From assembly GCA_040879785.1 (NCBI GenBank), contig JBBDJR010000006.1, positions 192,410-256,409 on the forward strand: a DNA stretch of 64,000 nucleotides, given 5' to 3'. The notes beneath the pieces were generated by a model. It was not told the origin of the DNA and did not search any database. It worked only from the letters and a program-made list of their open reading frames with translations. Shown here in pieces: positions 38,501 through 53,522 of this stretch. Within the stretch, counting starts at the first letter, position 1; each line of letters opens with the position of its first letter. This DNA comes from Candidatus Pacearchaeota archaeon. GTDB lineage: Archaea; Nanobdellota; Nanobdellia; Pacearchaeales; GW2011-AR1. The position numbers and the translations under genes are program-made.

Positions 38501-39058
38501 TCTCTGAATCTCGTCTTCTGAAGGATCGTATTTTGCATACCCAAATGTTTCCCTAAGATAATCTATTAACATCAAGACTAAACAAGATGCGGTCGTTCCT
38601 GCACTCCTTATTGGTCCTGAAAAATAAGCTACAAAATAATCCTTGCCTTCTTTTGTTTTTTCTGTTTTCAGTCCGGTAAATCCTTCAATCGGAGAAGAAA
38701 CAACCCCTAGAGTTGTATAGGCAAAACCCACTCTTATCCCTGCTTCAATCGCCTCAATCAAAGATGAAAACTTACAATATTTTTGTTTGGCTACCTCTTC
38801 CGCTATGACAAAAGAAACCATCGGATCAAGCTTCCCGTGTTCTTCCTCAAGCTCAAGAATTCTCTTTGCGATTCCCGTCCCTTCCATCTGAGGACAAACT
38901 GTAGAAATAAGCCCAACAACCTTTTCAGCCAGGCTTCTTGCAAGAGGGACTTCTACCTTAGGCACAGGATCAAATCCTTTCGCCCTCGCTTTGTTCATAA
39001 CATCGTAGACCTTTCTCGTCTGACTTTCTATTTCACTAAGATATTGTTGCGTGTTCAT
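35534..39058 (-). CDS. dp2: DNA polymerase II (PolD) large catalytic subunit DP2
   Basis: 1174 aa. It has multiple Cys clusters (CDSEGCKKE..CEDCGSKC, CVACNEIMRRPPISGKCLKCDG) and PolD-typical blocks (GRPIFGHPS, RRDCDGDE). No intein is evident. Confidence 0.9.
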   Translation of the reverse strand: MNTQQYLSEIESQTRKVYDVMNKARAKGFDPVPKVEVPLARSLAEKVVGLISTVCPQMEGTGIAKRILELEEEHGKLDPMVSFVIAEEVAKQKYCKFSSLIEAIEAGIRVGFAYTTLGVVSSPIEGFTGLKTEKTKEGKDYFVAYFSGPIRSAGTTASCLVLMLIDYLRETFGYAKYDPSEDEIQRYVVENQDYHDRVTNLQYMPTKEEAVFLAKNLPIQVEGDPTEKFEVSNYKNLERVKTNRIRGGMCLIFSEGLAQKAAKGLRLLKSMKVKGLKSSGFDFLDEYIELHEKRDKGKVDDSPTYINDIVAGRPIFGHPSESGAFRFRYGRGRSSGFSAVAIHPATMEITDGFLAIGTQLKIEKPTKGCIVTSCDSIEGPIVKLFDGSVKRIYDKEEAKRIYNDIEEIIYIGDLLFPFSDVTNRNATLIKPGYVEEIWGLELREKNPRLEKKINSFNVGFDDALKMSEENGVSLYPKYIFYWTELSKEQLLGLVSWLKRSNVDKKIILPYGKKDQEEFVEGKRALELLGIEHRTTIENVIIGCDEAKAFLVNLGINPLAIEEKESIKEEMLETEKKLKEFFYKEDNSKQEDEKEIILSAINHVSHFEIRDKAGDFVGARMGRPEKAKLRKLIGSPNVLFPVGNEGGRFRSVQEACEVGTIKNNFPVYFCDSEGCKKETIYPVCEDCGSKCKKMFYCSECEGTSLEVCEKHKNEEFPTSRPNYFRPIDIRHYMEKAKERVGLKDSEMPQLIKGVRGTSSESHSIEPLEKGIFRAIHDLQVNKDGTVRFDATEMPLVSFKPKEIFVSIEKLREIGYTEDIEGNELARDDQILELKPHDVLLPSSPHSPEGRADEVFTRVCNFIDDTLVNLYGEKPLYNVKKKEDLVGKLGVFMAPHNCAGVVCRIIGFSSTLGMFASPYMHAAVRRDCDGDEAAVMLLGDVLLNFSRSFLPGHRGGTQDAPLVLNAKISAGEVDDQILDLELVREYPLELYRAADKREHSSTVRVYDVRQALKEGKDPFINIGFTHDTNNINDGVACSNYKILATMHEKVQHQMELVEKIRAANTSETARLVIERHFIKDMKGNLRKFSMQSFRCVACNEIMRRPPISGKCLKCDGKIIFTTHEGGIKKYLEPALDIANKYNLSTYMKQSLELTKRYIDSVFGKEPEQQENLGKWF

Positions 39059-39064
39059 TTTAAT

Positions 39065-40048
39065 TCATTGAAGAACCACTTCGTGGTCTGCTTCGGTTTC
39101 CTCTCTTTCTTTTTCTAAAAGATCCTCATACTCCTTTGATTTCTCTGACAGGCAAAAAAGATTTCCTTTTTGGACAAACCCCGGATCAACATGTCTAAAT
39201 TTTTTAATTAATTTTACGCTTTCGTGATTTGAAATATCTTTTTTTGAGATAATATTAAATCCATTTTTTAGCATTTCAAGCTTCCCTTTTATTTCTCTAC
39301 TTGATTTTTCTTCTAGCACGTCAAGTATCTGCATATCTGTAGAATTAGAAACTCCCTCAAAAGAAATTATTCCTTCCTCTATAGATTTTCTCAGGATTTC
39401 TGAAAGAATATGATATCTTGCTCTTGCCTCATATCCCGCCCAGTGATTTTTGTTTAAGTGAATATAATATTTAGCAAACTTCTCCGCAGATATCTGGGAA
39501 CAAAAAACAATCTTTTGATTAAAATTTCTCAAACATTCATAAAGATCCTTAGCATCTTTCTCAGAATGAAGTAATGAAATTTCTCTTAAAGAATAATCCA
39601 CCCTATCAGCACACAACTCGGGGGCGGGCCTTTCAAGAAGAGAAAAACTTTCTATATCTGCTATTTTCTTAGACTTAAACCCGTACTTTTCCAATATTTC
39701 TGCTAACTCACTTTTTTTGATAAATTCTTCTAAAATTTCATCTTGATAGTTCTCCTTAGAAGGGTCTCCTACCATCTGATCAATAACATGAGAAAATGCG
39801 GTGTGAGAAACATCGTGAAGAAGTCCTGCAACCTGTTCCTCTAAATTGGCTCCAAGCCTCCTAAGCAAAATAAGAGTTCCTAATGAATGTTCATACCTAG
39901 AGAACACCTCATCTAGATGGTAATAGTCTTTAGGCATTCCAAATTGAGACACCCCTTTCAGTCTTTGAAGAGAAGACGAACCCATAAGTTCAACTAAGAC
40001 AGGCTCGTTAATTTCTTCTTCTCCATAGACTCTATCTTTTATTTTCAT
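39065..40048 (-). CDS. HD-domain phosphohydrolase of the COG1078/SAMHD1-like type
   Basis: KDRVYGEEEINEPVLVELMGSSSLQRLKGVSQFG...FSRYEHSLGT...AGLLHDVSHTAFSH. There is an ATGA overlap with dp1. Confidence 0.65.
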   Translation of the reverse strand: MKIKDRVYGEEEINEPVLVELMGSSSLQRLKGVSQFGMPKDYYHLDEVFSRYEHSLGTLILLRRLGANLEEQVAGLLHDVSHTAFSHVIDQMVGDPSKENYQDEILEEFIKKSELAEILEKYGFKSKKIADIESFSLLERPAPELCADRVDYSLREISLLHSEKDAKDLYECLRNFNQKIVFCSQISAEKFAKYYIHLNKNHWAGYEARARYHILSEILRKSIEEGIISFEGVSNSTDMQILDVLEEKSSREIKGKLEMLKNGFNIISKKDISNHESVKLIKKFRHVDPGFVQKGNLFCLSEKSKEYEDLLEKEREETEADHEVVLQ

Positions 40049-41631
40049 TCAAAATCCAAAATTTTAATTTCTCCTGTTTTCATATTCATCATAGGCACCT
40101 TGCAAAAATCAGGTTTGTTTCCTTTCCTCTTCTGATATTCGGTCTCAGATTCCCATGCTGCGGTGGAAACGATAAGAATATTATTATAAGAAGAAACAGC
40201 ACACTTATGAGAATGACCGGAGACAAAAATATCAGGGACGTTTTTTATCACAAGTTCATCTTCTTCATAAGGGATATACTGAACAGAGGAGTGTGTTGGG
40301 GCAAGATGCCTGTGTTTCATGAGATATTTCATTATGTCCTCAGGAGCATTCATTCCTTTTTGAATCAGACTAGGAATATTGTTTGCATAAAAGGGGTAAG
40401 AAAACCCATGATATGTCAGAACATCAAACCCTGGAAAATCCCCTTTCCCGCCAAGGTTAATTGTTGCAGGGTTTCCAGTCATTATGATGTTTCTCAAATT
40501 ATAGAGGGGCCATGCATATTTCTCATCTAGAAACGGCTGTGGCTCCAAAAGCCTCACTCCATCGTGATTCCCTGGAGAAACAATTATTTTTATGTCTTTT
40601 CTTATCTTTCCCAAAAGTTCTGCAATCCCTTGGAATTGCTCTTCTAAATCTTTAATTTTAAGATCCTTAAATTGCGAGGGATAATTCCCTACACCAGAAA
40701 CCAAATCTCCAACGATAAAAAGATATTTTATTTTATCAACCTCTCCACTATTAGGTGTCTTCCCATTCAGATAATCAATGAATTTCCTAAAACTATCCTC
40801 TAAAAAAAGGTGGCTCCCATAATGAATATCTCCCACAAACAACACCCTTTCATCTTTAGGAGATTTCTTCTTATCTAAAATGACGGCATCAGGAAAAACG
40901 ATGTTGTTCGCAAAGAAAATCTCCCTGTCTCCCGAACCAATAAAACCAAGAACAGAATCTGGAGTTATATCTTCTGCTTGTTTGTAAATATCAGGTTTGT
41001 TTTGATTTATTAAAACTCTTGTTCTTCCGGTTAAATCCTCTATGTCGAGAAGAATATTCCCATTCTTTGTAACCCTTTTCTCTCCGACCATCCCTATTAT
41101 AGAAACTCTCTGGCCTTTTGTAAGTTTACTAACTGAAACGAGATTCTCAAGCTCCCTATGTTCCTGCAAGATATTCTTCAACCCAATAAACTTGCTTCTC
41201 AAATTTCCCACAAAATCCTGAACTTCTATTTTTTTCCTAAATGGTTTTGAAACTGTAGAAAGAACTTTTACACCATCGGAGGAATCTAGTTCTTCACTTT
41301 TTCCAATGACATATTCTTCTTGTTGAGACTTAGGCATGGATTCTTCTGAGAACTCTTTTGAAATCTCTATCTTCAAACCCAATTTAACCTTAAGCCTCTC
41401 TAAATTTCTTTTATTCTCTTCAGGAAGTTTAAAAAAAAACTCACTTATGCTCTCTTTATTTTCCTCGACCAACCTCTTAGTTATTACCTTTTTTTGAGTG
41501 TGGTTTTTAAGTTTCTCTATAATCAGCTTTACAGATTCTCCATCATTAGTTTCTTTGAAGAGATTGAGGACTTCGGGTTCTATCAATAAACCTTTTTCAA
41601 CACAATAATTTAATATCTCTTTTGAATCCAT
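40045..41631 (-). CDS. dp1: DNA polymerase II (PolD) small subunit DP1 (Mre11-like phosphodiesterase plus OB fold)
   Basis: Calcineurin-like motifs are present: LFVGDIHYGS, FIVGDLVSG, PGNHD and VSGHSH. The N-terminal helical domain is typical of DP1. Confidence 0.85.
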   Translation of the reverse strand: MDSKEILNYCVEKGLLIEPEVLNLFKETNDGESVKLIIEKLKNHTQKKVITKRLVEENKESISEFFFKLPEENKRNLERLKVKLGLKIEISKEFSEESMPKSQQEEYVIGKSEELDSSDGVKVLSTVSKPFRKKIEVQDFVGNLRSKFIGLKNILQEHRELENLVSVSKLTKGQRVSIIGMVGEKRVTKNGNILLDIEDLTGRTRVLINQNKPDIYKQAEDITPDSVLGFIGSGDREIFFANNIVFPDAVILDKKKSPKDERVLFVGDIHYGSHLFLEDSFRKFIDYLNGKTPNSGEVDKIKYLFIVGDLVSGVGNYPSQFKDLKIKDLEEQFQGIAELLGKIRKDIKIIVSPGNHDGVRLLEPQPFLDEKYAWPLYNLRNIIMTGNPATINLGGKGDFPGFDVLTYHGFSYPFYANNIPSLIQKGMNAPEDIMKYLMKHRHLAPTHSSVQYIPYEEDELVIKNVPDIFVSGHSHKCAVSSYNNILIVSTAAWESETEYQKRKGNKPDFCKVPMMNMKTGEIKILDFE

Positions 41632-41698
41632 TTTGATTTTTGTAATTTAGGAACTCTCAACTCTTTTCAATTAATCTAAATATTTTAATATATTCATC

Positions 41699-42910
41699 TC
41701 AATTATAATTAATTGAATCTTCAAGTATTGCCCTTGCTTTCTCAACTATTCCTTTCGCGATCGCGAGTTTGATTTCTCTCATCCTTCCTCCTCTTCCTTT
41801 TGAAATCACTCTCACATTAATTATCCCTAACATATCAAACTCCTGAATTATATCCCCCACACGACGCTGAGTAAGAACCTCTGACTTGTTCTTCAAACAA
41901 AGCTCCTGATAATAATTATAAACATCTCCTGTAAAATAGGACCCGTCAGGATTTTTATCTGAAAGCTCGATTATAGAATACAACACATACTGAAACTGCC
42001 TGGGCTCTGATTTGATTATATCGAGAATCTTGTCTTTTTCTATTTTAGTATTTGATTCATCTATATGTTTCAGGAGTATTTTATCAGACCCGTCTCTCTC
42101 AGCCAACTCTCCGGCAATTCTAAGAAGGTCCAACGCGCGTCTGGCATCTCCATGCTCTCTCGCAGCAAACGCAGCACACTTTTGAATAACTCCTTCCTGA
42201 ACGACCGTTTCTTTAAATGCCTGCTCTGCCCTCTTACTAAGAATTTCCTGAAGCTGTAATGCATTATATGGAGAAAAGACAATCTCCTCTTCCGACAAAG
42301 AACTCCTTACCCTCGGATCTATCCCTTCCAAAAACGTTAAATCGTTACTAATCCCCACAACCCCTACCTGAGCCTTAGAAAGCTCTGAATTAATTCTTGT
42401 TAAATTATATAAAAAATCTGTAGATATTTTTTTAACTGCCTGATCAACCTCATCAAGAATTAAAATCAAAAATTGTTTTTCAGAATCAACAAGGTCTATA
42501 AATCGATTATAAACTGTTTCTGTTGGAAGCCCTGTTTCAGGAACGCTCCCCCCTAACTTTTTAATAAGCTCTGCCAAAATTCTATATTCTGTATCTGAGA
42601 CTTTCCTTAATTTACAATTTAAATATTCTATCTTAATTTTATAATCAGCGTCTTTCTTAGCCCTTTTCAACAACTCCTCCTTAACATAATTCATTGATAA
42701 TGTTTTCCCTGTCCCTGTCTTTCCATAAAGAAAAAGATTGCTTGTCCTTTCTCCTCTTAAAACCGGAGCTAACATGGAAGCAACTTGCTTTATTTGTTCG
42801 CCTCTATGAAGAATCTCATTAGGCATATAATTCGATTGCAAAATTGACTTGTTTTTAAAAATCAAATTATTGTCAAAAGATTCGAAAATTTTATCAAGTT
42901 CAGACACCAT
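41699..42910 (-). CDS. cdc6: Orc1/Cdc6 replication initiator
   Basis: First ATG is at 42910 (the track start is GTG). AAA+ Walker A is GKTGTGKT and Walker B is ILILDEVD. There is a C-terminal winged helix. It lies adjacent to the candidate origin. Confidence 0.9.
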   Translation of the reverse strand: MVSELDKIFESFDNNLIFKNKSILQSNYMPNEILHRGEQIKQVASMLAPVLRGERTSNLFLYGKTGTGKTLSMNYVKEELLKRAKKDADYKIKIEYLNCKLRKVSDTEYRILAELIKKLGGSVPETGLPTETVYNRFIDLVDSEKQFLILILDEVDQAVKKISTDFLYNLTRINSELSKAQVGVVGISNDLTFLEGIDPRVRSSLSEEEIVFSPYNALQLQEILSKRAEQAFKETVVQEGVIQKCAAFAAREHGDARRALDLLRIAGELAERDGSDKILLKHIDESNTKIEKDKILDIIKSEPRQFQYVLYSIIELSDKNPDGSYFTGDVYNYYQELCLKNKSEVLTQRRVGDIIQEFDMLGIINVRVISKGRGGRMREIKLAIAKGIVEKARAILEDSINYN

Positions 42911-43049
42911 TTTCACAAGTTATTATTTTTGTCATTTTTATTTAAAGGCCCACACGTTGATTTCGTATGGAAAAAAGATTTTACAATCAAAACCTAACGG
43001 GAAAAAATTTATTTCCTATATAAAGACTTATGACCACTAATAAAGAAGG

Positions 43050-43068
43050 ACACCTAGATTTCCTGTGG
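43050..43068 (-). promoter_or_regulatory. ORB-like Orc1-binding box 1 (minus-strand reading CCACAGGAAATCTAGGTGT)
   Basis: Matches box 2 at 15 of 19 positions in inverted orientation. It contains the ttcctgtggaa dyad. Confidence 0.5.
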
Positions 43069-43308
43069 AACCCATAGAACAATAACAAAATACTACTACT
43101 GCCCTACATGTTCTACATGTTCTACTGCTAATATTTTACTCCCCTTATTATTCTTCTACCGCTAATTTTACAATTACTCTTACTTTTACTAATACTACTT
43201 ATATTATTATTATTATTATTATTATTACTTATCTATATACTATATAATATAAAAATTTATAAATAAAAATTAAAAATTAAAAAATCGATTTTTTCTTTTT
43301 AAATGTTT

Positions 43309-43327
43309 TCATAGGAAATCAAGGGGT
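43309..43327 (+). promoter_or_regulatory. ORB-like Orc1-binding box 2 (TCATAGGAAATCAAGGGGT)
   Basis: A GGAAAT core plus a G-string, as in archaeal ORB elements. It is inverted relative to box 1 and lies about 240 bp away. Confidence 0.5.
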
Positions 43328-43370
43328 GAGGCAAAACAATGTTGATTTAAACTCTATTTAGTTTTACAGA

Positions 43371-43382
43371 AAAGTTTATATA
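43371..43382 (+). promoter_or_regulatory. TATA box of the PRC-barrel gene
   Basis: aaagtttatata is centred about 27 nt upstream of ATG 43404. Confidence 0.5.
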
Positions 43383-43403
43383 TCATTTCCGTTTGGGTTA
43401 GAT

Positions 43404-43661
43404 ATGCAAGAAAAAAACCCCTTTAATTCCGTTGTAGGGAAAATGATTGTTACCAAAGAAGGTAAAAGACTTGGCTTCGTCAGAGACATAACTTTTGAAA
43501 CGAGATCAGGCGAACTTATTAATGTTGTTGTCAAAGATTCAACCCCTTATACTAGGAATCTTAATTTAGAAAAATCTTCCGACAAAGAACTTCTTGTTCC
43601 TTATAGCGCGATTATAGCAATCGGAGATTTTGTCGTCGTCTCAGAAGAAGATTTGATTTAA
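43404..43661 (+). CDS. PRC-barrel domain protein
   Basis: VVGKMIVTKEGKRLGFVRDITFETRSGELINVVV...LVPYSAIIAIGDFVVV fits the PRC-barrel pattern. Confidence 0.6.
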   Translation: MQEKNPFNSVVGKMIVTKEGKRLGFVRDITFETRSGELINVVVKDSTPYTRNLNLEKSSDKELLVPYSAIIAIGDFVVVSEEDLI

Positions 43662-43745
43662 TTCTAATCACCTGATGATATATTCTATTAAAATATATTT
43701 TAAGACTAAGGAAATATTTAAAAACGCTTTTTTTGTTAGTTTATC

Positions 43746-44162
43746 ATGAAAGTTGTTGGTTTTAATTTTTCAAAGATAAGCATAGAAAGAATGAAAGATT
43801 CTTTAAATTCGAAAGAAGAGCTCAAAGCAAATACCTCTATAGATGTTTCTGAAATAAAAGAGGTTAAATCCCACATACTAAAAACCAAAGAGCAGGTACT
43901 TGACGCCAAATTCACTTATGGTATAAAATATGACCCTGGTTTCGCAGAGATAAATATAGGTGGAAATATCATTGTCACAATAGAACCAAAACTCGCTAAA
44001 GAAGTTCTCAAACAATGGAAGAACAAAAAGATGCCTGAAGATTTCAAAGTATTCTTATTTAATACAATTCTAAAAAAATCTACACTAAAAGCGCTATATC
44101 TTGAAGAAGAGCTTAACCTACCTCTTCACATGCCTTTACCTTCATTTAAGAAGAAAGGTTAA
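43746..44162 (+). CDS. Hypothetical protein
   Basis: 138-aa ORF with a TATA-like aaatatttaaaaa upstream. No secure family assignment. Confidence 0.45.
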   Translation: MKVVGFNFSKISIERMKDSLNSKEELKANTSIDVSEIKEVKSHILKTKEQVLDAKFTYGIKYDPGFAEINIGGNIIVTIEPKLAKEVLKQWKNKKMPEDFKVFLFNTILKKSTLKALYLEEELNLPLHMPLPSFKKKG

Positions 44163-44218
44163 GCATTTCGTTTATTTCTAATAAAAAACTAATTAAAGCC
44201 CATCTGTGATTATCTTCT

Positions 44219-44485
44219 ATGAGAATATCCAAAGAAAAACAAGAGAAGATCTCAGAACATATTCTTGAAACAATTTACTTAAACTCACCTTCAGCTCTTT
44301 TTACGTCCCATATATCCAAAGAAGTGGCCAGGGACGAAGAATTTGTTAAGAAGATTCTCCACGAATTAAAAAAGAAAAAACTTGTGGTTAAAATAAATAA
44401 AAACCCTCAAGGAGAGCCTTATTTAAGAAGGTCCCGGTGGAGATTAAGTGATGCGGCTTACAATATATACAAAAACCACAGATAA
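44219..44485 (+). CDS. Small winged-helix DNA-binding-like protein
   Basis: 88 aa with a helix-turn-helix-like segment (FTSHISKEVARDEEFVKKILHELKKKKLV) followed by a basic wing. Confidence 0.4.
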   Translation: MRISKEKQEKISEHILETIYLNSPSALFTSHISKEVARDEEFVKKILHELKKKKLVVKINKNPQGEPYLRRSRWRLSDAAYNIYKNHR

Positions 44486-44511
44486 TAATAGTTATATACT
44501 AGACCCTGAAA

Positions 44512-44522
44512 GTTTTTATATA
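44512..44522 (+). promoter_or_regulatory. TATA box of gene 44542..45324
   Basis: gtttttatata is centred about 25 nt upstream of the ATG. Confidence 0.5.
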
Positions 44523-44541
44523 GGCAACTTCTAATTTAGAC

Positions 44542-45324
<783 letters not shown>

Positions 45325-45603
45325 ATCCCAGTTTTCGCTTAACCGAATAAGTCTAATCCTCTCTTTTACAATATATCTTCTGATTATACCATCTAATATC
45401 CTCTTATTTTAGCCCATTTCTCCCACCTTAGAGCCCTAAACTCTCTTTTTGTCGTTTTATTCTCTCATAGATCCTCTTTACACCATCAAAAGCCAGATAT
45501 ACCTCACTTTTACCTCTTTTTTCACATAAATCAGGATATAATCTCTAAAATTAAACCAAATCAACTCTCACTTTTTTAATTTTTATCTATTCTTAACCCC
45601 CTT

Positions 45604-46218
45604 TTATTCATCTCCTTCGCTTTTTTTCTTACTTCTAACTCTCACTTTTGCCTTTTTTAAGAGTTTTTCCCTCGTTTCTTCAGGAATAAACACCCTTTTT
45701 TTCCCGTTTTTCTCTACTACTTCCTCAACCAAACCATCACTTTTCTGTTTTATCCGGTTTATATGGCCCCTCACAGTTGATCTCTCCTTTCCAAGTATTG
45801 ACGAAATATCATCATAACTAAGCCTCATGTCCGAATTAAGTAACACCCAAAGTATTGCTCTCTCAGTTACTGAAAATTGGTCAAAATTTGGTGTTTGAAC
45901 ACCTGTTTGAACACCTGTTTGAACAGCATAAACACCTGTTTGTTTATCAAACACCTGTTTGGCTGTTTGTTTTTGCTGTTTAGGTTTGAGCTCATTCATG
46001 ATAGAAACAACATTTTTTATACCTTCTATCTCTTCATTTATCGTCGATAAAGTTTCTTTTATTTCTTCAATGTCTTCTTTTTGTAAATTTCGCTCAGAAT
46101 CAAGGTGTTTAATCCATGTACTCATGGAATTTATGTCTTTTTTAACTAAATCAAAACTGTTTTTTGTGTCCTCTTTTAGACTTTCAACATCTTTTTTCTT
46201 AAAAAACCACCCAAACAT
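45604..46218 (-). CDS. Coiled-coil / repeat-linker / C-terminal wHTH protein (paralog B)
   Basis: Same architecture as 44542..45324. It has a coiled coil, a QTGVYAVQTGVQTGVQT linker, and the C-terminus FSVTERAILWVLLNSDMRLSYDDISSILGKERSTVRGHINRIKQK. Confidence 0.5.
   Translation of the reverse strand: MFGWFFKKKDVESLKEDTKNSFDLVKKDINSMSTWIKHLDSERNLQKEDIEEIKETLSTINEEIEGIKNVVSIMNELKPKQQKQTAKQVFDKQTGVYAVQTGVQTGVQTPNFDQFSVTERAILWVLLNSDMRLSYDDISSILGKERSTVRGHINRIKQKSDGLVEEVVEKNGKKRVFIPEETREKLLKKAKVRVRSKKKSEGDE
45897..45960. repeat. Four copies of [g/a]aacacctgttt within the CDS 45604..46218
   Basis: Copies are at 45897-45908, 45909-45920, 45930-45941 and 45949-45960. Confidence 0.9.
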
Positions 46219-46313
46219 GGATTTATTTATCTAACCATGTTTAAAAACCTTTCTCTTTTCCGTCGGAGAAAAGAATGATTGTCCATAATAAAACCTCCAA
46301 TATTTTATCTAAA

Positions 46314-46431
46314 AAACACCCTCCAAAAATACACTTTTATCATAAATCAAACACCTAAACACCCTTTAAACACCATCAAACAGCCTGTTTAAACACCCCC
46401 AAACAGCTGTTTATTTTTTAAACAGCTGTTT
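46314..46431. repeat. Iteron-like array upstream of gene 45604..46218: five aaacacc half-sites and three aaacag(c)ctgttt palindromes
   Basis: aaacacc is at 46314, 46349, 46357, 46368 and 46391. aaacagcctgttt is at 46378-46390. The perfect palindrome aaacagctgttt is at 46401-46412 and 46420-46431. Confidence 0.85.
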
Positions 46432-46525
46432 GGTTCTTAAAAATCTATTCTATCTTTCCGTCGACAAACTTAGAAAATCTAAGATAAATATCATAAAAAA
46501 CAGCCTCTTTTAGTAAACCTTAACT

Positions 46526-46544
46526 AAGATAACCTAAGTGAACA
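46526..46544. repeat. 19-bp repeat copy 1 (aagataacctaagtgaaca)
   Basis: Matches copy 2 at 18 of 19 positions and copy 3 at 18 of 19. Confidence 0.85.
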
Positions 46545-46574
46545 TGCCCCGCCCTTCAAAAAGATCAGTTAAAA

Positions 46575-46588
46575 ATTTCGGCCGAAAT
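46575..46588. promoter_or_regulatory. Perfect 14-bp palindrome atttcggccgaaat upstream of gene 46658
   Basis: It lies about 16 nt upstream of a TATA-like catttaaatta. The gene itself has a strong SD (ggaggtg at 46647-46653), which is unusual among the leaderless-type genes here. Confidence 0.4.
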
Positions 46589-46657
46589 CTAAGGAAAGAA
46601 ACATTTAAATTAGGAAAAAACTACATATTTTCATAAAAGGATGAAAGGAGGTGTAAA

Positions 46658-47002
46658 ATGTCAAATTTAAAAAACGCAGGTAAGTGGTCATTCATAATTG
46701 GTCTTGTAATAGCTATTTTGGCTGCCCTAATAACTGTTATTGATCAATCGATTGTCCTTATAGTGCTGTTTATTTTAGGTCTTGGGGTAGGTTTCCTAAA
46801 CATATCTAACAAAGATTCGACAAAATTCCTAACAGGACTTATTGCTCTTTTCCTAATCGGCGCTACAAGCCTTGGAGCTTTAACAATCCTAGGGGCTGTT
46901 GAATCATATGTTGATAGCATCTTGGAGAACTTCCTTGTATTTGTAGGATCTGCAGGACTGGTTGTTTCAATAAAGGTAATCTTTGAGACCAGCAAACAGT
47001 AA
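46658..47002 (+). CDS. Small membrane protein (3-4 TM)
   Basis: 114 aa, hydrophobic. It is preceded by a GGAGGTG Shine-Dalgarno. Confidence 0.5.
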   Translation: MSNLKNAGKWSFIIGLVIAILAALITVIDQSIVLIVLFILGLGVGFLNISNKDSTKFLTGLIALFLIGATSLGALTILGAVESYVDSILENFLVFVGSAGLVVSIKVIFETSKQ

Positions 47003-47046
47003 TTACACAACAATTTTTTATTTTATTTTATTTTTTATTTCTAATT

Positions 47047-47065
47047 AAGACAACCTAAGTGAACA
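47047..47065. repeat. 19-bp repeat copy 2 (aagacaacctaagtgaaca)
   Basis: Same orientation as copy 1, 521 bp downstream of it. Confidence 0.85.
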
Positions 47066-47131
47066 GAGGCAGTTTTCTGGACAAGCACAGAACACAATAA
47101 TTCTTAAAAAGTCGAGATATTTTGAATTTTT

Positions 47132-47410
47132 ATGCATAGAGATTCAGCAAATAGGGAGCTAATTAAAGGAGAATATTATCATGACACGCTCTCTACAAGG
47201 GTTTTTCATTTTACTGGAGAAGATGATAGCGGCAACGCACTTCTTCAGGATTTTTCAGAAAAGATAAGTCCTTACACACCAGGGTTTACATCTGACCTAA
47301 GAGGGATTTATGATATCAAAGAATATGTTTCAAGGAGAGAGCAAGAAATCTCCTGGTTACGTGGGAAAATCTCAATGTTAGAGGAAAAAGGAAAAGAATC
47401 ACAAAGATAA
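47132..47410 (+). CDS. Hypothetical 92-aa protein
   Basis: ORF with ATG start. Its stop codon lies inside 19-bp repeat copy 3. Confidence 0.4.
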   Translation: MHRDSANRELIKGEYYHDTLSTRVFHFTGEDDSGNALLQDFSEKISPYTPGFTSDLRGIYDIKEYVSRREQEISWLRGKISMLEEKGKESQR

Positions 47411-47422
47411 CCTAAGTTAACA
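47404..47422. repeat. 19-bp repeat copy 3 (aagataacctaagttaaca)
   Basis: Same orientation, 357 bp downstream of copy 2. Confidence 0.85.
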
Positions 47423-47456
47423 CAAACAAAAAACAAGGCAGAGATTTCCTTCCATA

Positions 47457-47579
47457 AGGCTAGATTTTAACCAAAAAACGCTCAAAATACAGTTTTCTAG
47501 CCTAAAACCCATTTTACGCGTAAAAGATTCGCATAATGTAGATTGTGCGAAGTCCATATATTGGGCATGTTCGAACGTG
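47457..47579. other. Cluster of four inverted repeats in a noncoding region (candidate structured RNA or protein-binding sites)
   Basis: aggctaga (47457-64) pairs with tctagcct (47496-503). The palindrome ttttacgcgtaaaa is at 47512-25. ttcgca (47528-33) pairs with tgcgaa (47546-51). The near-palindrome catgttcgaacgtg is at 47566-79. Confidence 0.35.
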
Positions 47580-47656
47580 ATTTATCTCAAAAAATCTCGA
47601 AAATACAAATTCTTAAAAATTTATTTTTACCAAATCTACCACCCCTTATTCCTTAA

Positions 47657-48103
47657 TTAAATTCTCAAACCAGAAACACTAAGAAGAACGAAAATCCACC
47701 AGGAGAGGAAGGAGATAATCATGCTTGTTGCTATTTTGTTTTGTAGGGATGAATGAAGAAGGACATTTTTTCCTGCAAGTTTGTCCAATCTCGGGCTAAC
47801 ATAAAAAGATAAGAAAGAACCATTTAAGGCCATGATTACCAATAGGCCAGATTTTGCCAGGTTTAATGTGGTAATGCCCTCTCGCGGGAAGATAAATACA
47901 AATGTTGCAATTAAGAGAAGTGAACCAATCCAGATTAACGGCTTTGTAACATGATGCGCCTGAATCGTTGTCCGAGTCCACTTTTTGTCTTTTCTGGATA
48001 TAAAACCCATCAAATCAATTACAGTAACAGCCCCTAGTCCGATAATTATGCCTGCAAAATGAAAAAACAAAAGCCAGTCAATTTCTAAAATAAAATCTAT
48101 CAT
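47657..48103 (-). CDS. Membrane protein (4 TM), unknown function
   Basis: 148-aa hydrophobic ORF. Confidence 0.45.
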   Translation of the reverse strand: MIDFILEIDWLLFFHFAGIIIGLGAVTVIDLMGFISRKDKKWTRTTIQAHHVTKPLIWIGSLLLIATFVFIFPREGITTLNLAKSGLLVIMALNGSFLSFYVSPRLDKLAGKNVLLHSSLQNKIATSMIISFLSWWIFVLLSVSGLRI

Positions 48104-48181
48104 TTATTACTAAGCAGAATCTCACTTAAAACCCTTTCTACAACACCAATATTTTTTAAGTGCAGATTATTTACCTTTTCC

Positions 48182-49378
48182 ATGACAATCTTAAACTTCC
48201 TGAAAAAATTTGCTCGAAAGAAGAAGGCGCCAGAGCCCGAGCCAGAGAAACAAAAGCTGAGCTTTTCGGAACTTGGTGCCTGGCTGGATGAAAAAGAGAA
48301 AGAAAACAAACAGAAAGAGAAAGAGATATTTTCCTCGATTAAAGAGAGAACAGATGCTTTTGAAAAAGAGGCGGAAGAAAAAATAAAAGTTCTTGAAGGA
48401 GTTGATGTTGATTCAAAAAAAGCGGACGAAAGGCTTAAGTCGCAGTCAAAAGAAGGAAGGGAGAAATATGTTGGTTTTGTAAAAGAGTTGATACAGAATT
48501 TTAAATCACTTGAAGAAGAAAGCCTGCAACAGACAGTTTCAAAATTTGAGAGTCTTTTTGCAACCTTCGCCAAAAAAGCAGGAAAAAGCTATGAGAGAGC
48601 AACAATTCTTATAGGGAAAGAAGCCAGAGAACTCCACGAAACAACAAAAGAATTCTCTAACAAACTAAAAAATATATTCAAGAATAACGATGAACTAATC
48701 CAAAAATCAAAAACGATTTCTCTTCTTAAAAAAAGGCTGAAATATATCAGGCACGCGGATAGCGAGACTGAAAAATTCCAAAAAGAGATTGAGGAAGCTG
48801 AAGAAAAAATAAAAGAGAAACAGGAAGAAAGCAAAAAACTTCTAAAAGAAACCGAAGAGATAAAAGAAAGCAACGACTACAAAAACTATCTTGAAAAACA
48901 AAACAAACAGAGATCTTTAAGAGAGGAAATTGACCGAGATATTTTCTCTTTGAGACAGCTAATTGATTTTAAGACTCTCGGAAATTTTTACCACCAGTTT
49001 TCCGATAAAATGGAAATTATTAAGTCATACAGAGATGATTTTAGAGATTCTTTTAATGAGGATAAAGGAAAAAGAATTCTTGAACTAATTGAAAAAGCTA
49101 ATCTTCCCAACGAGAGGTTTAAAGAAAAAATAAACAAGATTGAAGATAGAAATAAAGAACTATCAAATGTTGAAGATGAAATAAAAGAGGACAAATCAAG
49201 ACGGAGACTAAGTGAATTGACATCTAAAATAACTAATACTACAATGGAATTAGGCGGGCTAAGAAGCAAAAAATCAGTCCAAGAAGCCAAACTCGAAAAA
49301 CTCAAGATTAATAAAGGGCAAATTACTGAAAAAATTAAGGAAGATGTTAATAACGTCGGTGCAGAGATTACAAACTGA
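48182..49378 (+). CDS. Long K/E-rich coiled-coil protein
   Basis: 398 aa, heptad-rich throughout. The antisense Ser-rich ORFs are shadows of this gene. Confidence 0.5.
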   Translation: MTILNFLKKFARKKKAPEPEPEKQKLSFSELGAWLDEKEKENKQKEKEIFSSIKERTDAFEKEAEEKIKVLEGVDVDSKKADERLKSQSKEGREKYVGFVKELIQNFKSLEEESLQQTVSKFESLFATFAKKAGKSYERATILIGKEARELHETTKEFSNKLKNIFKNNDELIQKSKTISLLKKRLKYIRHADSETEKFQKEIEEAEEKIKEKQEESKKLLKETEEIKESNDYKNYLEKQNKQRSLREEIDRDIFSLRQLIDFKTLGNFYHQFSDKMEIIKSYRDDFRDSFNEDKGKRILELIEKANLPNERFKEKINKIEDRNKELSNVEDEIKEDKSRRRLSELTSKITNTTMELGGLRSKKSVQEAKLEKLKINKGQITEKIKEDVNNVGAEITN

Positions 49379-49500
49379 CAATTAAATTCTTTGGGTTATT
49401 GCCTTATGGCACTTTACTCTAGCTTTACTATTCTAGTAAGGCCAGGAAAAGAAGGAAAACAATAAGCTTAAAAGAAACTTCCTGTTGAAAATTATGTAAA

Positions 49501-50928
49501 ATGAAAACCTTTGAAGAATTAGGACTCGGAAAAGAATTGTTGGAGATAGTCGGAGATGCAGGATTTGATTCTCCGACGGAAATCCAGGAAAAAGCAATTC
49601 CTCTCGCGCTTGAAGGGAAAGATGTTATTGGAGGAAGCGCCACAGGCTCGGGAAAAACCCTCGCCTTTGCAGTACCAATCATAAAAAAAGTAAAGCCAAA
49701 TGAAGGAATACAATCACTCGTTTTAACACCGACGAGAGAGCTTGCCCAGCAGGTCTCACAAGCAATAAGAGATTTTTCAAAAAATAAACATCTTAATATT
49801 GCCACAGTTTACGGAGGAGTTTCAATAGAAGACCAGATAAGAGATTTGAGAAGATCAGAAGTTGTCGTCGGAACTCCGGGAAGAATCCTGGACCATCTTT
49901 CAAGAAAAACAATAGATTTATCGAATGTAAAAGTTCTTGTTCTCGACGAGGCAGATAGAATGTTCGACATGGGATTTATTCATGACGTTACAGACATTAT
50001 TCAGTTCTGTCCAAAGGAAAGACAAACCCTGCTATTTTCTGCAACAATCTCTTCAGATATTGCAAAAATATCAAAAAGATATATGAAAGACCCTGAACAA
50101 ATCTCTGCAGAGCCAGAAGTTGACCCCTCAAAACTAAGCCAGGCATTTTATGATGTTCCTCAAAGCCAGAAGTTCTCACTATTAGTTCATTTACTTCAAG
50201 AAGAAGGCTCGAATCTTGTAATGGTTTTCTGTAACACAAAAAGAAATGCAGACCTTGTTACTGCTAATCTTGAAACACAAGGATTTGATGTAATGGCTCT
50301 CCACGGGAATCTAAGCCAGTCAAAAAGAGAAAAGGTCCTTAAACATTTTCACAAAAGCCAGAAGTTTATTCTTGTTTGTACTGACGTGGCTGCGCGAGGG
50401 CTCGACATAAAAGGAGTTTCGCATGTTTATAATTATGATTTCCCAAACACAAGGGAAGATTATACTCACAGAATCGGAAGAACCGCCAGAGCAGGAAAAG
50501 ACGGGAAAGCAATAACAATTCTAACTTCGAGAGATTATCAGAATTTTAGGAAAGCAACGAGATACATGCAACAGAGCATAGAACAAATGTCTCTTCCTAA
50601 ATTTGAAAGAGTTTATTTTAAAGCCAGCGAAAATGCAAACAAACCAAGAGGTCAACAAAGGTCAAGAAGGCCTGGAAGACCGGATGGGCAAGGTCCACGT
50701 CCCGGAAGAAGATTTCCCTCAAGAGGAGCCAGAACAACTCACGGAAGCAGAGATTCAAGAGGCGGAAGAAGCGGGAGAGATAATCGTGGCGGAAGCAGAG
50801 GATTTAGAAGCAGAGACGGAGGGTCTTCGGATTCAGGAAATCAGAGAAGATTCCATAAAAGTAGAAGTTCAAATCCCCAAGGCAGAAAAATAAGAAACGC
50901 CAGAAGGCAGGGTTCCGGAAGAAGATAG
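49501..50928 (+). CDS. DEAD-box RNA helicase with an RG/RGG-rich C-terminal tail
   Basis: The Q motif region is present, along with GSGKT, DEAD (VLDEADRM), SAT and HRIGRTARAG. The tail is RGQQRSRRPGRPDGQGPRPGRR...RGGRSGRDNRGGSRGFRSRDGG. Confidence 0.9.
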   Translation: MKTFEELGLGKELLEIVGDAGFDSPTEIQEKAIPLALEGKDVIGGSATGSGKTLAFAVPIIKKVKPNEGIQSLVLTPTRELAQQVSQAIRDFSKNKHLNIATVYGGVSIEDQIRDLRRSEVVVGTPGRILDHLSRKTIDLSNVKVLVLDEADRMFDMGFIHDVTDIIQFCPKERQTLLFSATISSDIAKISKRYMKDPEQISAEPEVDPSKLSQAFYDVPQSQKFSLLVHLLQEEGSNLVMVFCNTKRNADLVTANLETQGFDVMALHGNLSQSKREKVLKHFHKSQKFILVCTDVAARGLDIKGVSHVYNYDFPNTREDYTHRIGRTARAGKDGKAITILTSRDYQNFRKATRYMQQSIEQMSLPKFERVYFKASENANKPRGQQRSRRPGRPDGQGPRPGRRFPSRGARTTHGSRDSRGGRSGRDNRGGSRGFRSRDGGSSDSGNQRRFHKSRSSNPQGRKIRNARRQGSGRR

Positions 50929-50971
50929 TTCTTCCTTATATATTAAATCTGATTATAAAATAAGTATATTT

Positions 50972-51619
50972 ATGAACATTGTTCAATCTGGATTATTTAT
51001 GGAAAAAGTTGGACAAGGATTACAATTTAATGTTTATTCTAATAGAAATAAAGTAATCAAAAAATCCACATCTAAAATTCAGAGGGCTTCAAAGTTGATT
51101 AAATGGACACCGGGTTTATTATTGAAACCAATTAAATTAATGAACGAAATAAACAAATCTGTTTTAATTGGAAAAAACTCAATTGATAATATTCGGAAAT
51201 CAGGAATTGATTTGGAGTTGTTAGCAAACCCCATTTTTAATAAAAATGAAATTCAACAAGATAAAGTTGAGATTCTGAGTGATTACTTAAGGAGAGATTT
51301 TGAAAAATCAAAAATTTGGATTGATAAATTCATAGAGTTAATGGTTGAATGCTGGAAGAATGGTTTTTCTGAGAGAGTTTTTAATTTGACAATAAATAAT
51401 GGAGTTGATAAAGAAGGGAGAGTTGTTTTGATTGATCTTGGAGAATTAACATTTGAGAAGAAAGAGGTTAGAAATGCAATTAAAATTAAGAGATGGGAAA
51501 AAAGTTGGAGTTTTAATTGCGATATGAACAAAGAAGTTAAAGAATATTATAAAAAACAAATGAGAGAAAGATTAACATTACACAACTTAAATAAATATTG
51601 GAATTTAAATAAAAGATAA
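50972..51619 (+). CDS. Hypothetical AT-rich gene; possible degenerate protein-kinase-like fold
   Basis: VGQGLQFNVY...VIKK (Gly-loop/Lys-like) and RVVLIDLGEL (DFG-like) are present. The catalytic HxD position reads SER. The call is weak. Confidence 0.35.
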   Translation: MNIVQSGLFMEKVGQGLQFNVYSNRNKVIKKSTSKIQRASKLIKWTPGLLLKPIKLMNEINKSVLIGKNSIDNIRKSGIDLELLANPIFNKNEIQQDKVEILSDYLRRDFEKSKIWIDKFIELMVECWKNGFSERVFNLTINNGVDKEGRVVLIDLGELTFEKKEVRNAIKIKRWEKSWSFNCDMNKEVKEYYKKQMRERLTLHNLNKYWNLNKR

Positions 51620-51645
51620 TCTAATTATTTGTCTTAGAACAATTT

Positions 51646-52143
51646 TTACTGAGAATCTGCCGCCTCTGTTCCTTCACTTGCTCCTGCTGAACCTGCACCT
51701 TCTTGAACATCTACAACTTCAATATTAAAGAAAAGGTCTTTTCCTGCAAGAGGGTGGTTAAGGTCAAGGGTTATCGTTTCTTCTTTAACATCAACAATTT
51801 GTGCAGGGAACTGCTGTCCTTGAGGTGACTGAACCATCAAAACCATTCCTGGCTCCGGCTGTTTTCCGTCAGGGTTTTCAGGAACAGAACTTTTTGGAAT
51901 ATCTTTTTTTAAATCATCCCTTTTTTCGCCATAAGCCTGATCTGATGAAATTTTGAATTCTTTTTTCTGTCCTTTTTCCATTCCCTTTACAGCATCTTCA
52001 AATCCAGGGATAACCTGTTTTGCCCCAACCTCAAATTCAAGAGGCTGGCCTTGCTCTCCCTGTTTGGAACTATCAAAAACCTGTCCGTCTTCGAGCTTTC
52101 CTTCATACTCTACTTTTATCTTATCTCCATCTTTTATAGCCAT
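51646..52143 (-). CDS. FKBP-type peptidyl-prolyl isomerase (SlyD-like, with inserted flap domain)
   Basis: GDKIKVEYEGKLEDGQVFDSS...PLEFEVGAKQVIPGFEDAVKGM...LNHPLAGKDLFFNIEVVDV. Confidence 0.85.
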   Translation of the reverse strand: MAIKDGDKIKVEYEGKLEDGQVFDSSKQGEQGQPLEFEVGAKQVIPGFEDAVKGMEKGQKKEFKISSDQAYGEKRDDLKKDIPKSSVPENPDGKQPEPGMVLMVQSPQGQQFPAQIVDVKEETITLDLNHPLAGKDLFFNIEVVDVQEGAGSAGASEGTEAADSQ

Positions 52144-52267
52144 GAAATATCCAATAAGAGACCCCTTTTAAGTTTTGCGGGTTTATTTTACATTTTAACA
52201 TACAGAAAATGTTCGATATATTTTTAAGCTAGGACGGCTCTAATAAATTAGGACAGAAGAGGGAAAA

Positions 52268-52813
52268 ATGAAAATATTTGATAAAAATTTTAAAGAAATC
52301 TTTTCAGCCCAGTTTTTTGCAATTATAGGAGGATTGGTTTCAGGAATTGTCTTGGTAGTATATTTAGATAAAATTTTTATTATTCCTGGAATGCTCATTA
52401 TCATCCCGGGGTTTATGGCAATGAGGGGGAATATAAGCGGAGGCCTGGCATCAAGGGTAACTGTCGGACTTCTTCTCGGGCTTATAAGTCCTGATAGAAA
52501 AAACGACAGAATTGTTAAAGGAAATCTTTCTGCATCACTCTTCCTCGCAGCAATCATTTCACTCCTTCTAGGTCTTGTCGCATTCACATTTAATTATTTT
52601 GTTTCAGGCATAATCACACCAAAAATAATCCTTGTTCCCCTACTTGCAGGCATCATCTCAACATTCCTCCTCGACCATATAACACTTTACGCTACAATTA
52701 AACTATTCAAAAAAGGCTACGACCCTAACAATATGATGGGTCCTTTGGTAACAACAGCGGGAGATGTTACAAGCATTCTTTCCCTACTCATAATAATTTT
52801 CCTAATCGTTTAA
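52268..52813 (+). CDS. MgtE-type divalent cation transporter membrane domain protein
   Basis: PGFMAMRGNISGGLASRV and TTAGDVTSILSLL resemble the MgtE TM domain. It is a tandem paralog of the next gene. Confidence 0.55.
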   Translation: MKIFDKNFKEIFSAQFFAIIGGLVSGIVLVVYLDKIFIIPGMLIIIPGFMAMRGNISGGLASRVTVGLLLGLISPDRKNDRIVKGNLSASLFLAAIISLLLGLVAFTFNYFVSGIITPKIILVPLLAGIISTFLLDHITLYATIKLFKKGYDPNNMMGPLVTTAGDVTSILSLLIIIFLIV

Positions 52814-52814
52814 A

Positions 52815-53522
52815 ATGAAAATGATAACAAAAGAACTGAAAAAATATTTGCAGGACATAAGAAAGCTTGAGAGAGAGAAAAATCATGATCTGATTCATAA
52901 AGTTCACAAAAAACACGGCATCTCTAAGCAGACATTATTTTATGTCAAAGAGTACGGAAAAAGTAAGAACGTTTCGGGAACGATAATAAAAGAAAGTATA
53001 AAGATACTAATCCTTGCATCAATCATAAGCTCTTTTGGAGGTTTTGCACTTAATAGTATAGAAACACTTTTCCTTTCCATTTTCCCTCTCGTTCTTCTTT
53101 TACCCGCGCTAAATAATATGGTAGGAAATTATGCAACGGTGGTTTCCTCAAGATTCTCTGAGATGTTATATGACGGAAAAGTAAAAAAGAAGTGGTGGAA
53201 AACACCGGATTTAAGAAAATTATTTTCACAGATTTTAATAATGGCAATCTTTGCGTCTGTTCTAAGCTCTCTTGTTGCAATTGGAATTACATATTTTTCT
53301 CCGGAAGGGATTGTTTTAGGAGTTGCAATAAAAGTATTTTTGATAGTTTTTATAGATATGATTCTCCTTACAAACATTCTTTTTTTGGTAGCGGTTTTTT
53401 CAGGACTCTATTTTTATAAAAAGAACGAGGACCCCAACAACTTTTTGATTCCAATTACTACGGGCGTGGCTGATTTTTCAAACATGGTTGTTCTTGCAGT
53501 TCTTGTTGTGATTCTTTTTTAA
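52815..53522 (+). CDS. MgtE-type divalent cation transporter membrane domain protein with an N-terminal extension
   Basis: LPALNNMVGNYATVVSSRF and PITTGVADFSNMVVLAV are present. It starts 1 nt after the upstream stop. Confidence 0.55.
   Translation: MKMITKELKKYLQDIRKLEREKNHDLIHKVHKKHGISKQTLFYVKEYGKSKNVSGTIIKESIKILILASIISSFGGFALNSIETLFLSIFPLVLLLPALNNMVGNYATVVSSRFSEMLYDGKVKKKWWKTPDLRKLFSQILIMAIFASVLSSLVAIGITYFSPEGIVLGVAIKVFLIVFIDMILLTNILFLVAVFSGLYFYKKNEDPNNFLIPITTGVADFSNMVVLAVLVVILF

Follow-up and report, generated by a model that had tools for sequence, protein, structure and literature searches.

Positions 192,410 to 256,409 of contig JBBDJR010000006.1, from a Candidatus Pacearchaeota archaeon, form the 64-kb stretch of DNA analysed here (the window). 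Within it, short half-sites of the form AAACAS or STGTTT are packed into an array that lies both upstream of and inside the gene (45604..46218, minus strand) for a 204-amino-acid protein, here called wHTH204, in which a disordered linker connects a coiled coil to a winged helix-turn-helix (wHTH) domain. The array is real and locus-specific. Its copies inside the gene are conserved as DNA, not as peptide, and are under selection there, and in distant relatives the motif changes together with the recognition helix of the protein. Judging from these comparisons of sequence, the locus is most likely a self-site array, overprinted on the coding segment of a disordered linker and maintained across orders with turnover of the motif. 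The gene is highly conserved in Pacearchaeota and Nanoarchaeia. Pacearchaeales and Woesearchaeales are ultra-small, almost entirely uncultivated archaea, and we know of no experimental result on chromosome replication control or segregation in either of them. A literature search found no publication on this locus, motif or protein; one preprint lists a wHTH regulator among the single-copy core genes of the phylum.

The array and its copies inside the gene

The 10-mer AACASCTGTT gives eight strand-hits, that is six sites, all of them in 45898-46430, compared with 0.16 expected in the window from dinucleotide-preserving shuffles, none of which (0/100) matched the observed count; the rest of the 64-kb window holds no site. 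The half-site AAACAS, counted on both strands, occurs 22 times in 45880-46435 (39.6 per kb) and at 2.25 per kb window-wide, and AAACACC has 23 matches in the window where 8.5 are expected, ten of them in 45688-46397. An earlier note on this DNA had described such an array as centred on a DNA-binding gene, and these counts agree with it: the array is not compositional, and all the coordinates given for it proved correct on re-reading and in the motif counts.

The upstream array (46314..46431, on neither strand in particular) comprises 12 half-sites. It includes two perfect AAACAGCTGTTT palindromes (46401-46412 and 46420-46431), AAACAGCCTGTTT at 46378-46390, AAACACC copies at 46314, 46349, 46357, 46368 and 46391, and a core that reads GGTGTTTAAACAGGCTGTTT on the minus strand. 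The array lies 96-213 bp 5' of the ATG and at least about 70 bp 5' of a TATA-like box, TTTTTAAA (46240..46247, minus strand). It had been called promoter-proximal, but it stands outside the core promoter and does not overlap it. The TATA-like box is 29 nt 5' of the ATG and occupies -28/-29 in 56 of 65 related loci, a position that implies a leaderless mRNA.

The intragenic array (45891..45981, again without a strand) consists of nine AAACAS/STGTTT half-sites, among them four copies of the 10-mer AACACCTGTT starting at 45898, 45910, 45931 and 45950, and it encodes the linker KQQKQTAKQVFDKQTGVYAVQTGVQTGVQTP. One further half-site, AAACAC (46105..46110, minus strand), stands isolated in the part that encodes the coiled coil, at codons K37-H38; in relatives these codons are AAA in 97% and CAC in 90%, and a peak at +100 is found in 58 of 73 loci. 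The coding cluster that the earlier note had reported is present, then, but larger than was stated. Of its four copies, all assigned there to the peptide QTGV, three do encode it (cAA ACA GGT GTT), while the fourth, at 45949-45960, is AAA CAG GTG TTT and gives K-Q-V-F in another frame. The upstream and intragenic clusters are ~455 bp apart, centre to centre, with the promoter and the first third of the gene between them. Scans of the 64-kb window with Rfam at gathering thresholds and for tRNAs found nothing.

The product of the gene is 100% identical to the NCBI entry WDZ69_03280, from a Candidatus Pacearchaeota metagenome-assembled genome, on a 285-kb contig. It has 2482 homologues, the 120 closest listed being ~200 amino acids long and 68-85% identical, and the family is a small one, with 287 clusters at 50% clustering. 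The N-terminus carries a MFGWFFKKK motif. An AlphaFold2 model from a 27-sequence alignment places a long helix at residues 3-77, a low-confidence, structure-less segment at 81-108, a winged helix-turn-helix at 117-177 and then a short C-terminal helix. The linker spans about residues 78-116, and the only part predicted to be disordered (81-108) is the segment encoded by the intragenic array; the earlier suggestion that the linker was recruited from the repeat, or overprinted by it, fits these data. In Foldseek the wHTH domain is nearest to MarR-type regulators, namely MepR, also in complex with DNA, and the archaeal AbfR2 and BldR, with E 2e-4 to 2e-3 and a template-modelling score to the target of 0.45-0.54, the likeness being confined to ~90 residues of the wHTH. 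Searches of Pfam, NCBIfam and PHROGs with the protein gave only sub-threshold matches to HTH families and to sigma-70 region 4, Pfam MarR gave no match, and a sequence profile search of the PDB returned noise only (E >= 0.08). An N-terminal amphipathic membrane helix was dropped as evidence because the helical hydrophobic moment is low (0.11-0.18).

The linker peptide KQVFDKQTGVYAVQTGVQTGVQTP is conserved among orthologues, which is odd for a disordered tether and is explained by constraint on the linker DNA, as a codon alignment of 77 orthologues reveals. At four-fold sites in well-conserved columns, codon entropy is 0.29 bit in residues 83-109 and 1.23 bit elsewhere (Mann-Whitney p = 6e-5), and in two-fold columns it is 0.18 bit in the linker and 0.56 bit elsewhere (p = 1.5e-4). 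For instance, glycine is encoded by GGT in 96% of cases in the linker and 33% elsewhere, alanine by GCT in 97% and 33%, and threonine by ACA in 93% and 52%, respectively. All these contrasts compare columns within one set of sequences, so that shared ancestry does not account for them. At the variable positions 95, 102 and 106 nearly every codon is GGT, GCT or CCT, apart from a single ACT at one of them, and position 89 is chiefly GTG (37/77) or CTG (26/77). The variable linker codons correspond to the central S-S of AAACA-SS-TGTT, which is the sole variable part of the upstream sites too. The freezing of the linker codons, together with the restriction of the variable residues to GGT, GCT and CCT, shows that it is the DNA on which selection acts. 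The 10-mer is read in two reading frames in 51 of the 77 genes. Repeat number, a comparison that the earlier note had proposed, is nearly constant across the orthologues, and the predicted RNA fold of the coding array does not differ significantly from shuffles (z = -1.8).

Conservation and turnover of the motif in relatives

The motif census was extended from the window to the ~12-kb loci of relatives. In 80 loci of the same subfamily (A), in which the motif word is AAACASSTGTTT, the density of AACASSTGTT is 2.45 per kb over the 500 nt upstream of the gene, 4.9 per kb in the gene and 0.02 per kb over the remaining 704 kb, and the rest of the 64-kb window has none; these loci are phylogenetically related, and the raw counts overstate their independence. 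An equal frequency elsewhere, which the earlier note had named as the mark of a compositional artefact, is not what this locus DNA contains. Each locus has on average 8.7 upstream half-sites, which lie at -120 to -220 and compare with 1.0 expected, and another 10.1 within the gene, between +220 and +340; start-to-start spacings peak at 10, 13, 20, 23 and 33 bp. GGTGTTT, CTGTTT and AAACAG sites are found at -120 to -220 in nearly all related loci, and an upstream core, STGTTTAAACAS(n)STGTTT, recurs in 35 of 65 at a median position of -176. Thirteen stray AACASSTGTT sites were examined; they are partly mini-arrays 2-5 kb upstream, and four fall within the 3'-terminal part of a serine-recombinase gene, which makes a handful of further targets beyond the locus possible. 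Viral contigs (IMG/VR) held no arrays for two diagnostic patterns.

In four loci (L037, L049, L051 and L063) the serine recombinase gene lies ~2.4-2.7 kb upstream of the wHTH204 gene and holds AAACAGCTGTTT in its 3' end. The word encodes ..DKQLFEQVQ.. there, so that the recombinase shares with the wHTH204 gene the same word and, in part, the same peptide (KQLF).

A profile search recovered distant full-length relatives with the same architecture and different linkers. Those of subfamily B (labelled Nanoarchaeia and Woesearchaeota, Woesearchaeales-type; 61 loci examined, 52 with a full-length gene) are 29-35% identical to the window protein, and their position relative to the PRC-barrel gene, the replication origin (oriC) and orc1 is unchanged, with ArgRS and LonB inserted. 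The recognition helix reads GLSIVTVRRHINDIKK in subfamily B and GKERSTIRGHLNRIKQK in subfamily A, the differences being at positions 146, 147, 151 and 155. The A motif is absent from all subfamily B loci, and their linker DNA is dense in another palindrome, the B-type word TGAACGTTCA, with the half-site CGTTCA. The pattern GAACGTTC occurs 80 times in B genes, 8 times within 300 nt upstream of them and 0 times in 247 kb of other DNA, and it is absent from 817 kb of A loci. The CGTTCA half-site reaches 14.4 per kb in the gene, 2.8 per kb upstream and 0.09 per kb elsewhere in B loci. Among 44 distinct B genes, 41 contain it in every one of the three frames; the 15-mer GTTCATGAACGTTCA, for example, gives V-H-E-R-S and F-M-N-V-Q at two places of one gene. 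An upstream CGTTCA array with a 10-bp period (e.g., GTTCAatcgcGTTCAatcgcGTTCA) is found in 11 of 41 B loci, at -90 to -45, where it abuts the 5' side of the TATA box (background, 0.23 half-sites per 150 nt). The N-terminal motif (MxFWFFxKK) and the coiled coil are kept even where the DNA motif differs.

A third and still more distant homologue, full-length and 31% identical (E 9e-18), is not near orc1 and has a linker without repeats. Directly 3' of its stop codon stand two TTCGACA blocks with 11-bp phasing, which hold 14 of the 17 TTCGACA copies in 12.6 kb (1.5 expected); this case consists of two loci, one of them with an assembly gap inside the array. Three lineages have three half-sites, each physically tied to the gene. 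With synonymous freezing and the use of two frames, the turnover of the motif in step with the protein bears out the earlier proposal that the array extends into the gene as a DNA element.

Interpretation of the array

A block of conserved order comprises the array, wHTH204, a convergent gene for a 260-amino-acid coiled-coil wHTH protein, an 88-amino-acid wHTH protein (wH88), p138, a PRC-barrel protein, oriC, orc1 and PolD DP1, and its partners are present in 58 to 78 of 80 species-level GTDB loci (tblastn). On the other side of the array the 80 loci have no conserved gene content, so that the array marks the edge of the conserved origin-proximal block. The canonical oriC of the window (42917..43403, without a strand) has inverted origin recognition boxes (ORBs) at 42961-42972(-), 43059-43070(-) and 43307-43318(+), flanking an AT-rich, repeat-laden stretch at ~43150-43290, with the same layout in relatives. 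The orc1/cdc6 gene (41699..42916, minus strand) follows, and then PolD DP1 (40045-41631) and DP2 (35534-39058). The array is 2.6-3.2 kb from oriC and the wHTH204 gene 2.7 kb. The convergent neighbour (44542..45324, plus strand) encodes a protein in which a linker separates the coiled coil from an HTH_36-type wHTH. It had been taken for a paralog of the wHTH204 gene, an assignment that is not supported: there is no detectable sequence similarity between the two proteins (BLASTP E 0.56), only the architecture being common. The linker DNA of this neighbour contains a canonical ORB, TTTCCAnnGGAAATCAAGGGGT (44835-44855), and then (GACA)8 (44859-44890), a segment that encodes ..STGNxGVPTDRQTDRQTD... 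The ORB is oriented like the right-hand oriC ORB, 1.5 kb away, and stands inside the open reading frame in 63 of 81 loci scanned; its position is shared by L001-L080, L082 and L083. The deeply divergent subfamily B paralogues of the gene also carry the linker ORB, with (CACT)n in place of (GACA)n.

On balance, the array probably consists of cognate half-sites for the gene's own product, and its role would be autoregulatory or architectural, the latter as an origin-proximal nucleoprotein complex. The AAACAS half-sites would form a two-part array, upstream of the leaderless promoter and overprinted on the disordered-linker codons. The binder would be a coiled-coil dimer or oligomer with its winged-helix domains on flexible tethers of ~35 residues, and domains tethered in this way could take half-sites in any orientation and spacing. 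Joined by a coiled coil and held on long tethers, they would account for the head-to-head, tail-to-tail and direct-phase arrangements of the half-sites. If both clusters were occupied, the promoter and the 5' third of the gene would be covered or looped out, with negative feedback as the result, and a single large complex would arise at a constant location, 2.6-3.2 kb from oriC. Binding by the gene's own product, bridging or looping of the two clusters and autoregulation are all inferred here from the letters of the DNA and the protein. As expected of an autoregulator, the sites are specific to the own gene and covary with the recognition helix between subfamilies A and B, a third motif accompanying the distant homologue.

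Several observations weigh against this explanation. The covariation ties the motif to the locus, where two other wHTH proteins are also encoded. The subfamily A array is clear of the TATA and B recognition element (BRE) region, the usual place of archaeal repressor action, and its ~20 half-sites go far beyond the need of simple feedback; dense sites almost only at the own gene suggest a structural role of the site itself. The upstream cluster is missing in 30 of 41 subfamily B loci, and looping is thus not a universal mechanism. A few extra sites are also found 2-5 kb upstream in some genomes.

The comparison with MarR autoregulators (MepR, AbfR2/BldR) shows the same mixture. These are the nearest wHTH structures, and palindromic sites near the own promoter are a shared feature. 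However, wHTH204 has no Pfam match to the MarR family, and according to the model its dimerisation would use a 75-residue N-terminal helix and a flexible linker in place of the helical dimer interface of MarR; the locus has ~20 half-sites instead of one or two operators, and part of them lie inside the coding sequence.

The same binding might serve another purpose, namely a centromere-like or origin-anchoring site, in which wHTH204 would coat the locus and autoregulation would be a side effect. The conserved hydrophobic-basic N-terminus (MxFWFFxKK) would then serve to tether the origin region, or to organise it, either for segregation or for the formation of a domain boundary. This version is credible though unlikely. 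A dense, essentially unique locus of ~20 half-sites at a constant distance from oriC, within a block that is syntenic in 58-78 of 80 species and exactly at the boundary with the variable region, would suit it, as would the conservation of the protein (68-85% identity among the 120 closest homologues listed) and that of the N-terminal motif and coiled coil despite the change of DNA motif. Mixed-orientation half-sites with ~10-bp phasing are found in the centromeres of ParR/parC and omega-heptad systems, and the parS site within spo0J in Bacillus subtilis is a precedent for a site inside the binder's own gene. On the contrary, no ParA/SegA/ParM/TubZ-type nucleoside triphosphatase (NTPase) gene was found in the ten genes around the locus or in the syntenic block of the 80 loci, the low hydrophobic moment of the N-terminus leaves a membrane-targeting amphipathic helix unsupported, and there is no orc1 close to the distant homologue with its TTCGACA arrays.

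Known partition systems offer a similar balance of likeness and difference. In Bacillus subtilis, parS sites lie inside the spo0J/parB gene and cluster near oriC, and the present locus resembles ParB-parS, ParR-parC and omega-heptad arrays in having its putative sites beside and inside the gene of the candidate binder, close to a replication origin. Short direct and inverted repeats with a phasing of about one helical turn are also common to them, as is the capacity of an array to be both operator and assembly platform. Unlike ParB-parS and ParR-parC, no partner NTPase gene was found at the locus or in the syntenic block, and the 204-amino-acid protein combines a coiled coil with a MarR-like wHTH and has neither the helix-turn-helix/CTPase fold of ParB nor a ribbon-helix-helix. 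Partition arrays differ also in that here ~ten sites are concentrated in one disordered-linker coding segment with dual coding, in an archaeal lineage (Nanobdellota).

Another possibility, though quite an improbable one, is a replication element, in which the array would supply an accessory initiator with iteron-like sites or belong to a second origin, acting with Orc1. ORBs are scattered through the block, the one in the linker of the 260-amino-acid gene (63/81 loci) being kept in subfamily B too, and in 11-18 of 65 loci an ORB with CTTCGACAC stands between array and promoter, the array being on the side of the ORB where the duplex unwinding element (DUE) would lie. The cumulative GC skew, examined over 38000-54000, has a local minimum at the array (~46.5-47.0 kb, in the intergenic region) and not at the AT-rich stretch at 43.2 kb, and the skew is -0.23 to -0.41 across 44.5-46.5 kb despite the plus-strand 260-amino-acid gene; over 3 kb, however, gene strand and the composition of the motif itself confound GC skew. 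The 260-amino-acid protein has weak matches to initiator wHTH models (HTH_36, DnaD_N, phrog_428); wHTH204 matches no Rep or initiator family above threshold. A complete canonical origin, with inverted ORBs and an AT-rich DUE beside orc1, already exists 3 kb away. Neither an ORB nor an AT-rich unwinding stretch adjoins the window's array, which is followed by short T-runs only. Its motif, AAACAS, is unrelated to the ORB (a TTCCAnnGGAAA dyad, then a G-string), the true ORBs being those starting at 42961, 43059, 43307 and 44835; next to the window's own array there is only a degenerate resemblance to an ORB, seen by eye; an ORB at that place is found in just 11-18 of 65 relatives.

Iteron plasmids, for example P1 (RepA with incC/incA), R6K (pi) and pPS10 and pSC101 (RepA), are the closest parallel for this possibility. 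They have in common with the locus a winged-helix protein, repeats that flank or overlap its gene and a half-site used both inverted (as operator) and direct, and bridging or looping between two arrays is in both cases the proposed control step. At the locus, 6-bp half-sites and 12-bp palindromes of mixed orientation take the place of tandem 17-22-bp iterons; there is no adjacent DUE, the nearest AT-rich stretch being the ORB-flanked one at 43150-43290, 3 kb away; and the protein has no match to the Rep_3/RepA (WH1-WH2) family, its model showing a single wHTH after a long helix. The plasmid-like iteron replicon that the earlier note had considered is not supported by these features, all the more as the locus is chromosomal, 3 kb from an Orc1/ORB/DUE origin.

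Sulfolobus origins do need an extra motif-binding protein, UBP (111 amino acids, >300 genomic sites), whose motif, ucm, occurs as one 11-bp site within the DUE (PMC12141716). The present locus likewise associates an additional sequence-specific motif, and a putative binder of it, with an archaeal Orc1-type origin, but the 204-amino-acid protein is unrelated to UBP and the array is locus-specific and 3 kb from the DUE. Because NTPase, ParB or ribbon-helix-helix fold, iteron-sized repeats, Rep or MarR profile match and DUE are all missing, the locus was assigned to none of the partition, iteron and MarR systems.

It is improbable that another protein of the block, either the 260-amino-acid neighbour or the 88-amino-acid wHTH, binds the motif. 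All three wHTH genes are co-inherited with the array and covariation at the level of the locus cannot separate them, and AAACAG units also occur in the linker of the 260-amino-acid gene, within the (GACAAACAGAC)n runs of some loci. The motif is, however, embedded in the wHTH204 gene and not in the others, in both subfamilies. The linker of the 260-amino-acid gene has a different and constant element, the ORB, in both of them, and the distant homologue, which lacks these neighbours, still adjoins an array.

Least of all is it to be expected that the repeat was selected as peptide or RNA, through a VQT-type linear motif or mRNA structure, or that it is a compositional or slippage artefact with coincidental upstream copies. 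The linker peptide is indeed conserved and V-Q-[ST] recurs in both subfamilies. The palindromes could pair in RNA, and a promoter-like sequence, TCGACGG-N14-TTTTTAAG, recognised by sequence, lies immediately 5' of the upstream array, which would fold strongly if transcribed (z = -4.7); this value follows trivially from the two palindrome copies, and the fold of the coding array (z = -1.8) does not reach significance. Against such an origin, one DNA word gives different peptides by frame in one gene (KQVF and QTGV, VHERS and FMNVQ), synonymous sites are frozen, and the same word is arrayed in untranslated DNA 5' of the TATA box. Moreover, the repeat number is nearly constant, unlike that of slippage-prone repeats, and the enrichment over flanking DNA is >100-fold.

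If the array is indeed bound by wHTH204, a wider and rather unlikely reading would make it part of an unrecognised origin-flanking, chromosome-organising module of the Nanobdellota (DPANN). The wHTH204 complex would mark or anchor an origin-proximal boundary, centromere- or insulator-like, beyond the repression of its own gene, and protein and site would be inherited as one unit. Such a module might include protein sites of the origin region that are overprinted on disordered-linker codons, the Orc1 ORB in one coiled-coil wHTH gene and the half-site array in the other. Apart from this, the locus offers a concrete candidate protein-DNA pair beside the only recognisable origin of Pacearchaeales and Woesearchaeales, with two natural specificity variants, AAACAGCTGTTT and TGAACGTTCA, that can be exchanged for one another in vitro. 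As a case of dual coding the locus is unusually clean as well: a dense array of predicted sites has been kept for very long inside a coding region and turned over with the protein, and it is tolerated there because the region encodes a disordered linker. The Orc1 box conserved inside another coding sequence of the block bears on the extent of archaeal origins.

Other elements of the block and its borders

Between oriC and the 260-amino-acid gene, the window (43404-44485) encodes the PRC-barrel protein (85 amino acids), p138, which has no family match, and the 88-amino-acid wHTH, with a sub-threshold match to HTH_69. PRC-barrel proteins have been linked to cell division in other archaea. The linker of the 260-amino-acid gene contains five copies of TTCGACAC (44730-44898; 0.87 expected) in two frames (STHP and IRHI). 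The same element, as TTCGACA/GACAGACA, forms the 11-bp-phased arrays 3' of the distant homologue (L143 6638-6816; L144 6650-6960), and in 11-18 of 65 relatives it comes after the ORB (GGGGCTTCGACAC) that lies upstream of the wHTH204 gene.

A TCGWCGA-type motif recurs around the gene. A CCGTCGG copy at 46260-46266 (element 46258..46266, no strand assigned) stands directly 5' of the TATA box, and others are found at 46041-46047 in the coding sequence, at 46458-46464 beyond the array and at 45218-45224. YCGWCGR has 17 matches in the window where 7.4 are expected, four of them clustered around the gene. All relatives have a copy ~45 nt 5' of the ATG (tCGTCGAAAAAgAAAAGATTTTTAAA), and the copy in the coding sequence fixes codons S58-S59 as TCG TCG (100% and 91%). 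In subfamily B genes, GTCGACGA is found just ahead of the CGTTCA array.

The far edge of the conserved block is occupied by a distal element, TGTTCACTTAGGTTATCTTAGT (46511..46544, minus strand), with further copies at 47032-47065 and 47389-47422, located also as 47053-47065 and 47410-47422, all on the minus strand. It is an imperfect dyad, TGTKCACTWAGGTTAnCTTWGT, present in three successive intergenic regions with one small gene between each (tm114 and p92). The element is found in 47 of 65 relatives, often in two or three copies, in the region without conserved gene content, and its repeats may have a cassette-like or att-like arrangement. Serine recombinases in A loci and tyrosine integrases in B loci are encoded in the variable region that holds it.

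At the opposite end of the wHTH204 gene, near its 3' end, AAAGTGAGnGTT (AACTCTCACTTT on the plus strand) is frozen at synonymous sites, at codons K191-V194 (~45637-45648), with AAA GTG in 100%. Five copies with 60-95-bp spacing extend over the gene 3' end and the convergent intergenic region (45439-45751), and AAAGTGAG is also repeated 3' of the stop codon in relatives.

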